Program-made: the position numbers and the translations under genes
Shown: in pieces, positions 16,365 through 45,499 of the stretch
How positions within the stretch are numbered: position 1 is the first letter of the stretch
Layout: the number at the start of each line of letters is the position of its first letter
The notes under the pieces: generated by a model
The model's input: the letters and a program-made list of their open reading frames with translations, nothing else
Told to the model about the DNA's origin: nothing
The model's database searches: none
DNA from: Ginglymostoma cirratum
Taxonomy: Eukaryota
Direction of reading: 5' to 3'
Assembly (NCBI GenBank): GCA_024137785.1
Contig: JAHRHZ010000009.1
Span: 7,522,428-7,586,427, forward strand
DNA: 64,000 bases

Positions 16365-16590
16365 TCGACAGCAGGAAATAGAAGAGAAGCTGATTGAGGA
16401 AGAAACTGCAAGAAGGGTGGAAGAACTTGTGGCCAAACGTGTGGAAGAGGAGTTGGAGAAACGTAAAGATGAGATTGAGCGTGAGGTACTCCGGCGTGTC
16501 GAGGAGGCCAAGCGCATTATGGAAAAGCAATTGTTGGAGGAGCTTGAGCGACAGCGACATGCTGAGCTCGCTGCACAGAAAGCTAGAGAG
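16365..16590 (+). CDS. ARGLU1: ARGLU1 coding exon 2
   Basis: Acceptor taag|T completes Ile; [75 protein letters not shown]; donor GAG|GTAACG at 16591. Confidence 0.97.
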
Positions 16591-17820: not shown

Positions 17821-19558
17821 TTTTAAAACCACCATTTTAACGATGTGTGCATTTTCTTTCAAGTAATATATTTAAACTTTAATGTCAGGCGTTGTTATAT
17901 AGAATTAGGACTGAAGCACACAATAGTGCTTTGTTTACCGTATGTTTTATCTGATGTTACTTTGTGAAGTTTTATATGGCCCTATGCATTTATGGTGACA
18001 ACCTGTTTATACTGACCAAAAAACTGAAGCCCCAGTTCCATTTTTATATATTTATGCCAAATATTTACAGGTTATGTCAATGACATTATAAACATTTACA
18101 TGGTTAGTTTTCCTTTGTTTTATAATTATCAAAGGGTTTTATTATCCCTGTCATTCCGTCCCTACCTTTGGGAAGTTTGCATCTTTTACGTAATTGATCA
18201 AATTTACTTGTAAATAGCTGGGGGTGAAAATGGCATAATCTCATTATCTCAGATTCAGACCTAAGGCTTAATTTTGGATCTTTGCTTCCCCTCCCCCGTT
18301 GAGTTTATTTCAGTATATTTCACATTCATTTTATGCCCTCCTCTATCCCCCAGCCTTCATATCTCAATTCAGACATAAACAAGATCAAAGCCTAGACTTA
18401 GAATTAATGCGTGGCGGTCATATGACCTTAACACTTGGAAAAGAAATCCACGTGTAAAGTTCATTACTTTGTATAAAATATAAAAATATACCAATAGCTT
18501 TAATATCCCTCCTTTTCTGAAAGGTAAGAATGAATTGAATTTGTTTGTCTTGTATTGTCGTGTTGACAAATGGCATTAACACATTTAGTGATTGCCAGTG
18601 CAAAGTCATTGGATGAATAGGACTTTATATTGTTCTTCAAAGGGAAGGCGGTTAGTTTGTTTTGCTGATAAAATGTACTGGTTATTCCTCTAGGTATAAA
18701 ACCACCAGAAGTTTTGGCTACATTGACTTACTGACATATTTTACAAGTAATTAAGTTTTGGTAACTTGTACTTTCTTGCTTTAATCAATTGACATCAAGT
18801 GAAGGAGTTTTTTTTGTTTACGCAGTTGGTCTGTCAGAAAATTTTTCATTTCAGAATGTTCTTGTTTGCAGCCTTGAAGGGGGAATCATTCTACATTTTC
18901 TTTATATTTAATGCATCGAAGAGTGGCATAAAATGTGTTAGGAAAATACTACAGTTAATTTACATGACATTTTCATAAAATTAAAGACCTTCAAATTGAG
19001 TTTATATTCTGAAACACTATTATAAGTTGCATGATAGCCAGTGCTGCCTCATTTTTGTGTTTTCATTTCATTTTAGTTGTAAATTTTCAGCGTATTGATT
19101 TACTGTAAGATGTTGTCTATTATGTTATGATTTGCATTCTAACTTATTTATATCCAGGCTATTTTAAGTTCCAGGGTTGATGAGTGTCAGCTTGTAGCAC
19201 ATTACTAATCATAGTAAGATCATTTTTCTTTTTCATGTTTCTTCATAGTTTGCTTGGCTTCATGTTAACATTGTCATCCTACAGACAAGGGCAAATTTCC
19301 TGGGCCATTCACAGTACAGAAAATATAATTTTCCGTTCTGTGTACATTGTGAAATTGTTAACATTAAACACCTGGAAGGTGTTTGTCTGAATTCTGCAGC
19401 AGAGTAATCTCCAAACGTTGAAGTGTATTTAGTAGCTGAAGTAGATCATTATAAAATCTTTTGATCCCAAAATTAGTATAAATCATTCAGCATTTACTCA
19501 TCCCCTTGTAATAACAAAGTGCCTTGATTTGAAAAGTTGCTTGATCACCAATAGCTTA

Positions 19559-19965
19559 AATGGCGCTTATGTTCTCAGAACGGAACAAACCATCGTTTCT
19601 CCTACTGTGAAAGGTGCTCTCAGTTCCACAGAAGGATGGATTAAAGTTTGTATTTTTCACTAACAGTAAATGTATCTTTCTTATTAATTGTTTGCCTTAG
19701 GAATGGTGATTTATATTGTTTCTTCTTACCGTAAACATCTGCATTCCTCAGCTCAGCCTACGTTGTGTTGTGTTTCTTGTTATTGGCTGAGCTGCTGATG
19801 CAGGTGTTGCCAAGCTAACAGTACAAATCAGTTTAAAGAGGAAGCTGGCGCATATGGCAGCCGAGGAGCACACTCTGCAGGACACTGGACGAGACAGTAA
19901 ATATTCAACTTTTAATGCTGATTAATGGCGTTATAGGTAAAGAATACGTAGGTATTTGTAATTGC
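19559..19965 (+). promoter_or_regulatory. ARGLU1: ARGLU1 intron-2 ultraconserved splicing-control element (copy 1)
   Basis: Position near the 3' end of intron 2. Sequence cagtacaaatcagtttaaagaggaagctggcgcatatggcagccgaggagcacactctgcaggacactgga...ataggtaaagaatacgtaggta matches my recollection of the human ARGLU1 UCE (Pirnie et al. 2017, NAR). Boundaries approximate. Confidence 0.85.
19881..19936 (+). other. ARGLU1: ARGLU1 alternative poison exon
   Basis: ctctgcag|GAC acceptor; donor TAG|GTAAAG at 19937 (alternative TAG|GTATTT at 19952). In frame after exon 2 it reads DTGRDSKYSTFNAD* with TAA at 19923-19925. Confidence 0.8.
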
Positions 19966-20290
19966 TGAGAAAAGTCTATCTTTTTTATTTTTGTTAATGT
20001 AATTGGTAAAGTTTCTTTAGCAGTTGTATTATGTGTGGTTTAAAAATAGTAATATCAGCAAGCCTGACAAAGGAGGGTTTGGGTCATTGCTGTTTGAGGG
20101 CTGGGGTGGGATGGTTTATACCCAGAAAGAATTTAACTAGGGGCAAAATAGTTCACAAGAATGGCAATAAAAAGGTGGCTGTCTTGGGCATAGTCAGAGG
20201 AAGGAAAGAATACTAAGGGAAGGAGCAGTTAGTGTAGATGCAGTATTAAAATTATTTCTCTCCATTAACATCATATTGTCTCCTACTTAG

Positions 20291-20374
20291 GAGGAAGAAC
20301 GAGCTAAACGAGAAGAACTTGAGCGAATATTGGAGGAAAATAATCGAAAAATAGCAGAAGCTCAAGCTAAATTG
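20291..20374 (+). CDS. ARGLU1: ARGLU1 coding exon 3
   Basis: ctacttag|GAG; EEERAKREELERILEENNRKIAEAQAKL; TTG|GTATGT; 84 nt, phase 0/0. Confidence 0.97.
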
Positions 20375-20406
20375 GTATGTTTCATTAAAATTAAGTTAAT
20401 TTGTTG

Positions 20407-20706
20407 AATGGCAGTTATGTTCTCAGTATGGTTCAGACCATTCTTTTACTTACTGTGTCAAATGCTCTCAGCTCCACAGTAGGATGGATTGAAGCTTGTA
20501 TTTTTCCACTAACAGTAATTGTATTTTATTAATTGCTTGCATTGCGAATGGTGATGGAATATGCTGCTTACAATAAAAGTCTGCATTCCTTTGCTCAACC
20601 TATATTGTATTGTGTCTTGGTACTGACTGAGCTGCTTGAGGCAGTTGCCACGTTAACAGAACAAATCATTTTAAAGAGGAAGCTGGTGCATATGGCAGCT
20701 GGGGAG
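20407..20706 (+). repeat. Diverged second copy of the ARGLU1 UCE core, at the start of intron 3
   Basis: Colinear with 19559-19868; shared blocks include ttatgttctcag, tgctctcag.tccacag.aggatggatt, cactaacagtaa, gaatggtgat, tctgcattcct, ctgagctgct, acaaatca.tttaaagaggaagctgg.gcatatggcagc. Confidence 0.92.
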
Positions 20707-21591
20707 TCTTTACCTCTGTTTACCGCAGAACTTAGAGATATTATTCTTCCAACAGATCAGAAGAGTTTGACCTGATAAGATGCAAATTTAGCAACAAAGA
20801 ATAGCATATTGATTTTGATTTCTCCCAAACATGAGGGTACCAATTATTTAAACTTCTCTCCAGATGCAAAATATGTGGCTGTCATCCTGTAAGGGTAGAG
20901 GGAATATATTTTCTACTTCAGTTGTTTTGAGGAACCGTAGCTGATCTTTATCTCGAGGAAGAATATTATTTTGGATTTCTTGGGTTTCCATACTTTATGG
21001 TTACAATGTACTTTCGTTCACTATGCCACTTCTAAGTGTCAGCTACTCAATCCAATCATAGTAACTTCATTGTCACTGACTCAGGTTACATACCGTCATG
21101 TTTTCAAGTCTGTCAGTATCTACGACTCAATACTGACTCATTGCATGTCTTCACCCTTATCATTTGATAAATGTCTGTTTTTGAGTTTGGTACAAATGAG
21201 TGCTTCACTGAATGCTTGACTACTGAAGCTTGGAAGTTCCGGTTTTCTAGACAGACTACAGAGTCTGATTTGACACATGGGCATTCCTTGTTAAAATTCT
21301 CAACGTCCTTGAACATTCCTGCCTTCTAATCAGTCTTCAGTTCTCAGTTGTGCAACGAAGACAATTGCATTGTGATTTGTCCAGCTTTTGTCAATATCAG
21401 TCATCAACTGACATCAGCTTGCCCTCTCAAATCAAATAGCCAGAGTGCTGTGTTTGCTGACTGGAATTGATTCTTTGCTTCATTCAAATGGACTTGGCTG
21501 TTGCTAAAAACATTTGCTCTAGCTTCAAACCAAGGTAGTTCCTTCAAGTTCCTGAGCTGGGTCACTACTAGCATGCACTTCGCTGAAGAAA

Positions 21592-43250: not shown

Positions 43251-44065
43251 CTGCAGGCAAGAATTATAAAAGCTTTCATTTCGTGTTACAGTTTAAGATA
43301 CCATAAGACATTAATACAATACTGTTTCTGACAGTTAAATACACATTTTTCGTATAACAGAAGCTGGCTGTTTCTCATCGCGGGTTACCTGTTAATGGGT
43401 CTGATCGCTATGTCTGGGTTTGCGAAGGTGCGCAGCACTGTTACTATTTTTTTTAGGTGAGCTGATTCAATCTGAAACAAGTAACCTCTGCAATTCAGGG
43501 AAAGGGATCGAGTTTACATATTTGTCATAAAAGCTGCAACAGAAATAAGAAGCCGGGCGTAAAATGAGGTAATGACAACGTTTAAAAAGGTCAATATACT
43601 GTAATAGATTTCGAGTCCAGAAAGAAGCCAATGCATTAATGCTTTGAAATACTGATCTCGTAAAGAGAAATCCCTCCTTCTGTTTGGGTTCAGTGACTGG
43701 TCTTCCTTTGAATGTTCACTGACTCAGGTTAGACACTCTAAAATTGTTCGAATACGAATACAAATACAAATATCACCGTTGTCATGTCGTATGCGATTAT
43801 ACAAGTGAATCTTCCATAAAGTCGCACAAAACGATTAAATTAAATCTGCAAACTTGGAGTGTAAACTGTATCGTCATGCATTTCCGGGCTAGCTTTTAAG
43901 TCGATGCTGCTAGCATTTAACCCGGTTCATGGTGCCGGAAATCTCTCCATGTGCTGCAGTCTACAAAACTTGCTTCACTTGTACGAATTAAACTTCCATG
44001 GCCACTTTCCAAATTAGACCATATTTCCTCTCCCTCTCTTTTCCTCCCTCTCTCCTACAGACACA

Positions 44066-44535
44066 GATACATCATTAGTTCAAATGCTTTGCATTTACTC
44101 CAATAGATACAAATATATAATTAGTTCAAATGCTTGTTCTTACTCCTAGAGATACTATATATAATTAATTCAAATGTTTGCCCTTACTCCTTTACATACA
44201 AATATATAAGTAGTTCGAATACCTGCTGTTACTCCTATAGATACTACATAATTAATTCAATTATTTGTTCTTACTCCTATGGATATCATATATAATTAAT
44301 TCAAATGTTTGTCCTTACTCCCGTGAATACAAATTTATAATTAGTTTGAACACCTCTTGTTACTCCTTTAGATACTATGTATAAGAAATTCAAATGTTTG
44401 TCCTTACTTCTATAGATACAAGTATATTAGTTCACATGCCTGCTCTTAGTCCCATCCATACTATATATAATTAATAAAAATGTTTGTCGTTGCTCTTTAT
44501 AGATACAGTTTGTATTATTTCAAATGCTTGCCCTT
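44066..44535 (+). repeat. Minisatellite, ~11 units of ~44 bp
   Basis: Consensus gatac-(a/t)atatataatta(g/a)ttcaaatg(c/t)ttg..cttactcctata; units start near 44066, 44106, 44151, 44195, 44240, 44282, 44326, 44371, 44415, 44457, 44502. Confidence 0.9.
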
Positions 44536-45499
44536 AAAGATTACGCTGTTTCTTCACTGTTGGAATTAAATAACGGCACTAAGGCACATTTTAGGATACA
44601 GGTGCGAATTTTGTCAATAGGCTTTCAAAAATCTACATGTTCTTTGTAAGGTGTATATCTTAATAGGAACAAAAACAAAACGGGGCAAGGTTATGGATTT
44701 GGAGCAAGAGAAGACAACTAACTCTCTCAAGCGGCCAGCACAGCGGTTTAGGCCGAAAAGCTTTCTTCTAGCTATGGATTCATCTGTTCGGTTATAATAA
44801 ACCTTAAATAAATCAGTTTTGCATTTTAAATAATCAAGTGTCCGAAAGCCTTTCAAAAGGGGACGAGTTTTATTCTCCTGACGGTGCATCAATGGATCTG
44901 ACTTTTTTTAAAAAACGTGCTCTTCAGGCCAGCCTTCAGAAACCTATAATGTTCACAAAAGATTATAAGTTGTTAAAAATCACCTTTCATTGCAGCTGAA
45001 GACGTTTCTGCTGTGCAGTCAAACGCGTTTCGCTTGTGGCTTCTGTTCGATTCCTGGGCAACTTTATTTGAAAAAATCCAAGTTTGTGTTGGATTTCAGC
45101 ACCGCACCTTCACAATCACACTGATTGGTTTTCATCGAAACATCCTTAGGGGTCAATAGCATTCTCAGGTACAATGCTGAATCTGTCCTAACTCGGAAAT
45201 AAAACCATTTCCGTCATACTCCAAGACCTTGTGCAATGACATTAAAAATGCTCATGATCTAAAGACAACAAATCCCTCAGAAATCTTTCTTGTTTGCTTT
45301 GTTGTTGTGTCAATCTGCTGTAGATTTTCCAGGAAGTTATAGATACTGATTATATTGACCAACCAGATAATTACTGAATTAGGGACAATATATGATCTGA
45401 TGCAAATTGAAGACAAACACTGAATCTTTCTGAAGCCAACAATGTGACGATTCCAATAATTTGAATTGTAAAATGGGCATTTCTCTTTCGGTGAAATAA

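Follow-up and report, generated by a model that had tools for sequence, protein, structure and literature searches.

A predicted hairpin upstream of the ARGLU1 decoy exon and an apparently relaxed intron-3 duplicate of its ultraconserved element in Ginglymostoma cirratum

The ultraconserved element of ARGLU1 intron 2, a known splicing decoy, occurs in the analyzed stretch of Ginglymostoma cirratum DNA (64,000 nucleotides, hereafter the window) together with a partial duplicate in intron 3. We consider it probable that the original copy (copy 1) acts in cis as part of this decoy and carries a hairpin, and that the duplicate beside it (copy 2) has been released from constraint. The hairpin, denoted hairpin B, is the one well-supported structure among those predicted for the region, by thermodynamics and by comparison with the human sequence. 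Copy 2 is apparently a relaxed or non-functional local duplicate in which the helices shared with copy 1 are chance survivors, its neutrality being suggested by the pattern of substitutions. The intron-2 element itself is already known. The hairpin and the natural partial duplicate seem unreported: no description of either was found in the portions of the literature that were searched, including PMC3597668, PMC10858910, PMC12017769, and PMC13542418, with the Arglu1 sisRNA study (Chan and Pek, EMBO Rep) outside the scope of the search, and the main text of a preprint on human RNA structures (10.64898/2026.10.24.761493) held no occurrences.

The ARGLU1 exons and the features of the two copies described here lie on the forward strand. 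A genome-wide DNA search of this 4.36-Gb vertebrate genome returned only these two copies, which are 79% identical to one another. Copy 1 lies in intron 2 of ARGLU1, between exons 2 and 3, and copy 2 lies in intron 3. Exon 2 (16365..16590, with the 5′ end read from the sequence) and the coding part of exon 4 (24528..24692) both matched PF15346 over the cut-off. Exon 3 (20291..20374), which separates the two copies, encodes a segment of ARGLU1 whose match to the same family fell just below the cut-off (E 2.4e-5 over 28 residues). The donor of exon 2 (gag/GTaacg) is identical to the human donor listed in Table 1 of PMC5389617.

Several repeats were observed in the window. The start of a segment of intron 3 (21590-23050) matches a repeat seen elsewhere in the window (families D8 and D12) and gives the impression of a LINE fragment. 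An AT-rich minisatellite at 44052-44536 repeats a 44-nt unit approximately 11 times and shows higher-order periodicity at 89 and 131 nt. Four spaced copies of a 93-nt repeat at 353-1022, 66-72% alike to the reference copy, are probably what remains of an interspersed element that formed a tandem array and degenerated.

Copy 1, delimited by its alignment to copy 2 (19556..19868), is by sequence the 5′ part of the ultraconserved element known from intron 2 of ARGLU1, and is orthologous to the human one. In the text of Pirnie et al. (PMC5389617), human ARGLU1 intron 2 is described as harboring a 504-nt ultraconserved element in which an alternative exon is accompanied by a weak donor and by other donors that compete. 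We assign copy 1 to this element because the donors listed for human recur in order after 19896 and because they accompany a 58-nt frameshifting exon. Specifically, five donor 9-mers of the human element recur here, four of them identical and one with two changes, within a weak annotated donor and cluster of competing donors (19897..19960) that is missing from copy 2. The decoy, or poison, exon (19839..19896) is 58 nt long, as given for human in the sections consulted of PMC6097662, and 56 of its 58 bases are identical to the human text when compared by eye. When it is included, the reading frame shifts and a premature stop is reached 67 nt ahead of the exon 3-4 junction, which is the last one and lies beyond the 50-nt minimum distance expected of such a stop; this is a property of copy 1 only. 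Across the 214 nt that could be aligned by eye to the human sequence printed in Figure S4 of PMC5389617 (from ~19655 onward), 20 differences were found. The gene, the intron, the 58-nt frameshifting exon, the weak donor, and the donor cluster are thus shared with the human element as described in the consulted parts of PMC5389617 and PMC6097662; what differs from those descriptions is the partial copy in intron 3 and the stable hairpin upstream of the decoy acceptor.

A candidate branch point (CTAAC, A19818) and the weak decoy acceptor occupy 19815..19838, and U2AF1/2 binding is reported at the corresponding human acceptor (PMC6097662, in the sections consulted). A motif scan further identified a branch-point-like motif (A at 19663) followed by a pyrimidine tract and an AG (19660..19700), which we consider a candidate upstream acceptor. 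The exon range of ‘58-200 nt’ given in the consulted part of PMC6097662 is compatible with the AG at 19699-19700, which yields 201 nt when counted on the human text, a length that other pairs of sites equal.

The same 9-mer is found at 19660 and 19815, in each case as a branch-point-like motif followed by an AG, and it recurs in the human text; by a rough estimate, one 9-mer common to both domains in 310 nt is within chance. It may nevertheless be a repeated binding site for SF1 or QKI.

In human, the decoy exon with its weak splice sites has been shown to cause intron retention or decay, with feedback from ARGLU1, and retention in a reporter fell when either the acceptor or two donors were mutated (PMC5389617, in the text). 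A construct comprising 104 nt upstream, the exon, and 103 nt downstream promoted retention in a foreign intron, according to the consulted part of PMC6097662, and its 104-nt upstream piece would take in the upper part of hairpin B. Among the 22 sequencing runs listed, no RNA run was listed as containing the region. Runs of other organisms shared sequence words with it (shares of 0.34-0.35 in three and 0.57 in one) that could not be placed on the region, and no look-alike stretches were detected among those indexed.

The upper part of hairpin B (19734..19808) is predicted to comprise helices of 12 and 10 bp separated by a 3x2 internal loop and capped by a 26-nt UG-rich loop. The folding energy of these 22 bp was far below that of shuffled sequences (z -5.9, 0/300 shuffles), the best of 80 intron windows reaching -3.7, and an independent run gave a similar result (z -5.3, 0/200 shuffles). 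Pair probabilities were 0.97-1.0 in all four folding contexts. The reverse strand of the hairpin folds equally well, so energy does not choose the strand. Relative to the human text, compared by eye, the arms of the hairpin differ at 2 of 49 positions and the loop at 9 of 26 (Fisher p 0.0008). One of the two arm differences converts a G-C to a G-U pair and the other breaks a pair, with neither being two-sided, and the unpaired flanks of the hairpin are as conserved as its arms. These observations suggest that the human evidence is that of a variable patch coinciding with the loop rather than covariation.

Below this part, a weaker lower extension (19707..19830) is predicted to pair the candidate branch adenosine, with A19818 having paired probabilities of 0.59-0.93; this extension appears weaker in human by eye. 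The first-pass annotation had proposed that the element works as a folded RNA in both copies. Support for this proposal in copy 1 comes from one hairpin, whereas it does not extend to copy 2, in which the hairpin is lost: the folding z of copy 1 as a whole was -2.7 versus +0.08 for copy 2.

Copy 2 (20404..20706) begins 30 nt past the exon 3 donor, covers the first 313 nt of the element, and ends 30 nt into the decoy exon. Its ends are sharp, with flanks that show no alignable similarity, and its 5′ end falls within ~15 nt of the 5′ end of the human element. It retains the acceptor AG (20675-20676) and the 30 nt of the decoy exon, and has neither hairpin B, nor the upstream AG, nor a homolog of any donor in the cluster. 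The 62 differences between the copies in 313 nt are unclustered by three run statistics (p 0.23, 0.75, and 0.80). Over 164 nt in which human differs from copy 1 at 6 positions, copy 2 differs at 26 (p 0.0003). Only 13 of the 22 pairs of hairpin B are intact in copy 2 versus 15.5 expected, the arms are changed as often as the loop (11/49 vs 6/26, p 1.0), and folding of the region is no longer exceptional (z +0.3 to +0.5). Likewise, copy 2’s own folding energy is unremarkable (p 0.54), and the consensus energy of the two copies is no better than that of the null (p 0.85, 250 simulations). At 19731, 19831, and one loop position, copy 2 has the human base where copy 1 differs, suggesting that the duplication predates some of the changes in copy 1; elsewhere both copies differ jointly from human (by eye, with no outgroup).

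A tandem duplication that included exon 3 was also considered and rejected. No degenerate copy of the exon was detected, the best local score being 30 (reached in 7/200 shuffles) for a gappy alignment 2 kb away, and no residual homology was found past 19868 at four lengths.

How the hairpin might act is best approached through what is known of the human gene and of SF3B3. By extension from human, the weak splice sites of the 58-nt exon would either keep the intron in the transcript or direct the RNA into nonsense-mediated decay, with feedback from the ARGLU1 protein on this outcome. Within this arrangement, the pre-mRNA would form the 22-bp hairpin just upstream of the decoy acceptor, and the lower extension may pair the candidate branch adenosine in an SF3B3-like manner, tuning access to the branch point and acceptor. 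The 5′ 313 nt would have been duplicated locally into intron 3 and would then have changed roughly evenly, so that neither hairpin B nor the upstream AG nor any of the decoy donors was retained. In the consulted part of PMC11162794, SF3B3, likewise a splicing-factor gene, has a conserved stem-loop directly upstream of a poison exon, and the 3′ strand of its stem carries a candidate branch adenosine. There, however, the branch adenosines are described as lying within the main 14-17-bp stem, the disruption of which raises inclusion, whereas in ARGLU1 the candidate adenosine is predicted to pair in the lower extension, which is weaker, the loop measures 26 nt, and deletions in human are without reported effect. 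The at least three ARGLU1 structure rows in the consulted part of PMC11162794 refer to a site ~300 nt further downstream, which we read as the exon 3 acceptor. By this analogy, the function that we propose for hairpin B, tentatively and as the leading one of several, is that it tunes the accessibility of the decoy branch point and acceptor.

The human deletions bear directly on this proposal. According to the text of PMC5389617, rather than its gels, a deletion termed 168-1 left retention unchanged; placed by its primers, it maps to ~19570-19733 and removes the 5′ strand of the lower extension. Among the 25-bp deletions of the same study, the text alone reports effects for 6-11 and 13 and none for 1-5, and deletions 1-5 span both arms of hairpin B, its loop, and the branch-point motif. 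Since 168-1 and 1-5 are without reported effect, a role in protein binding or nuclear detention becomes nearly as likely as tuning. Here the hairpin would be real and would act elsewhere than on the branch point, for example with a double-stranded RNA binder on the stem and a UG-binding protein on the loop, or would be a microRNA-like or editing substrate. Firm support covers only the upper 22 bp, the conserved arms flank a variable loop, and SR proteins and NXF1 are reported on the conserved intron (PMC5737842, in the part consulted), all of which are compatible with such a role. The hairpin nonetheless adjoins the decoy branch region, with its predicted extension pairing the candidate branch adenosine; moreover, no Rfam microRNA match was obtained and the binders are putative. 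We therefore regard this possibility as somewhat doubtful, while holding it to be a serious competitor of branch-point tuning.

A less likely possibility is that copy 2 is still a decoy acceptor at the sequence level, slowing removal of intron 3 without a hairpin. Between its sharp ends, copy 2 retains a branch-point motif together with the AG of the acceptor and the first part of the decoy exon, and its divergence from copy 1 is lowest at the branch point-acceptor (4/30) and the exon start (3/30). Splice-signal segments, albeit picked post hoc, appear somewhat spared (17/130 changed vs 45/183 in the remainder, p 0.014), and a 7-bp helix (19806-12/19855-61) is invariant between the copies and present in the minimum-energy fold of copy 2. 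However, the run statistics given above are at chance, the sparing weakens to p 0.054 once human-variable patches are removed, and the invariance of the helix has a p of 0.18. The donor cluster and upstream AG have furthermore been lost, and in human, per the text of PMC5389617, mutation of the acceptor or two donors lowered retention. These considerations render a residual decoy function of copy 2 unlikely, and a relaxed duplicate remains the preferred reading.

Two box motifs led the first-pass annotation to a speculative H/ACA RNA, in which each domain would be followed by an ANANNA hexamer and then by ACA. The hexamers are present (19663, 19818, 20512, and 20656), and ACA occurs at 19823 and 20661, where it shares the last A of the hexamer, but no ACA follows the first hexamer before 19735. 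ANANNA occurs in this intron at a rate of 0.024 per nt, such that 6.6 are expected per 276 nt, and 5 were found in copy 1. Both hexamers start at the adenosine of a branch-point-like motif, the first 37 nt ahead of an AG that has a pyrimidine tract and the second 20 nt ahead of the decoy acceptor. The 19663 site, which overlaps the first ‘H box’, has lost its AG in copy 2, and the second hexamer and the ACA are contained in the candidate branch point and acceptor. The boxes are more simply read as splice signals of the known decoy exon.

H/ACA RNAs typically consist of a pair of 55-70-nt hairpins linked by a short hinge, with the pocket 13-15 nt and the loop 24-28 nt upstream of the ACA (PMC5207380, in the section consulted). 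Their H box is single-stranded and immediately follows the 5′ hairpin, their 3′ end lies 3 nt past the ACA, a bipartite guide pairs with rRNA or snRNA on either side of a uridine, and the discrete RNA is bound by dyskerin, NOP10, NHP2, and GAR1. Set against these dimensions, an H/ACA drawing that uses the helices originally proposed does not hold: helix A lies 23 nt from the hexamer, its loop is 36 nt away, and there is no pocket. The 3′ hairpin of copy 1 can be redrawn with its lower stem right before the ACA, the top of the pocket at 14 nt, and the internal loop at 26 nt from the ACA, with a probability of 5-8% that an ACA falls in that slot by chance. A different 5′ hairpin (19607-19660) stops 2 nt short of the first hexamer, places its loop at a distance of 26 nt, and is the fold of lowest energy when the domain is taken alone; it fits loosely and in copy 1 only, and the hexamer is partly paired in longer contexts. 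The 5′ half might then encode an overlapping H/ACA-like RNA (~19605-19828), duplicated in the manner of snoRNAs, whose ACA tail would overlap the branch region such that RNP assembly and decoy recognition compete; it would accord with this that the consulted human descriptions assign no splicing role to this half.

The redrawn structure is, however, oversized in its 3′ hairpin (108 nt) and hinge (46 nt), and both boxes are partly paired in copy 1. Copy 2 lacks the 3′ hairpin and pays ~4 kcal/mol for the 5′ one, and the copies stay similar for 40 nt beyond the ACA. Screening with Rfam yielded 0 matches at the gathering score in the window and 3 chance-level matches (E 1.2-9.9) over 19300-20900. 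The best guide matches in the 18S, U2, U5, and U6 of this genome comprised 6-9 pairs, none of them common to the copies; this search left out most of 28S, along with U1, U4, U11, U12, U4atac, and U6atac. Nominal matches were to U5 in copy 2 (0.02) and U6 in copy 1 (0.06) among 16 tests, again not common to the copies. The null for guides to 5.8S-28S was invalid because that stretch is mostly N, and its rows were dropped. ARGLU1 was not a snoRNA host among the supplement rows searched in PMC4914119 (human) and PMC11880993 (zebrafish), in which controls were found.

Similarities to H/ACA sno/scaRNAs as described in the consulted section of PMC5207380 thus comprise the ANANNA and ACA motifs, the 14- and 26-nt spacings in copy 1, and an intronic location with a copy in the neighboring intron, whereas the oversized hairpin and hinge, the overlap of the boxes with splice signals, the absence of the fold from copy 2, and the lack of a guide target among those searched set the element apart. 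On balance, an H/ACA-like RNA is very unlikely, and it is retained at all because of the spacings of the redrawn 3′ hairpin and the loosely fitting 5′ hairpin.

In this genome, a full-length 18S match (G000:C235; L007, L009, L010, L014, L015) has neither 5.8S nor 28S following it over the next 20 kb, where three weak tRNA-like hits are found instead, and a 5.8S copy lies ~21 kb upstream.

Equally hard to sustain is the model from which this analysis started, namely that both copies hold one fold, consisting of helix A and the base of helix B, that is under selection. As strings, the proposed helices exist: helix A has 8/9 pairs in copy 1 and 9/9 in copy 2, a 4-bp closing helix is present in both, the 6-bp base of helix B is invariant between the copies, and copy 1 has the upper B helices of 9 and 10 bp. 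Their joint preservation is nevertheless at chance. Among the 42 pairs proposed, 33 are intact in copy 2 versus 31.3 expected (p 0.31) under a null in which the 57 substitutions were re-dealt 5000 times over copy 1 with an identical spectrum and gaps; 4 changed on one side, 8 are broken, 1 is gapped, and 1 is repaired. The paralogue had been expected to supply covariation, yet none of the 42 pairs changed on both sides, and the two-strand change beside the B base proved to be re-pairing in a shifted register, with one wobble and one broken pair, rather than compensation.

The best case for a shared fold is helix A (19590..19639), which together with its closing helix is paired at 13/13 positions in copy 2 (nominal p 0.008, for a 13-pair composite uncorrected for selection) and reaches pair probabilities of 0.38-0.96 there. 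Yet copy 1 offers 27 candidate 9-bp helices, of which helix A alone pairs completely in copy 2; with 0.85 expected, the selection-aware p is 0.50. In copy 1 its pair probability is 0.00-0.10 (z -0.9), and it is one of three competing folds in the domain and not the favored one. The printed human sequence starts at ~19655, which places helix A outside that comparison. The B base has a pair probability of 0.00 in 8/8 folding contexts and, by eye, a mismatch in the human text of PMC5389617 Figure S4. Enforcing the proposed helices in copy 1 costs 7-9 kcal/mol for helix A and 8-13 kcal/mol for helix B. RNAalifold, which had been suggested as a check, returned a different structure for the two copies that includes neither helix A nor the B base; of its 64 pairs, 2 have changed on both sides, one being terminal and the other isolated. 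Collectively, these observations leave a common selected fold with very little probability.

Two further candidates were rejected outright. A three-way junction pairing the flanks of hairpin B with the decoy exon drew attention because its outer stem coincides with the end of the duplicated block; it costs 8-10 kcal/mol in copy 1 and ~16 kcal/mol in copy 2, which breaks two of the outer pairs. A C/D box reading was prompted by a C-box consensus in the human text (PMC5389617 Figure S4, compared by eye), from which both copies differ at the kink-turn adenine, and there is no terminal stem.

The preferred reading, a cis hairpin in copy 1 next to a relaxed duplicate, has several implications for the ARGLU1 element. 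The hairpin sits in the half of the element that the human deletions left without a function. The duplicate, in turn, shows how this sequence drifts when it is freed from constraint, with 26 differences over the stretch in which human has 6, which is the opposite of the use to which the first-pass annotation put it as a source of covariation. Should the H/ACA reading prove true, assembly of a dyskerin complex and recognition of the decoy would be set against one another on the same nucleotides, and the intron-3 copy would represent a decayed cis-duplicate in the manner of snoRNAs. In either case, copy 2 provides a ready comparison for what the ultraconserved 5′ half of the ARGLU1 element is conserved for.
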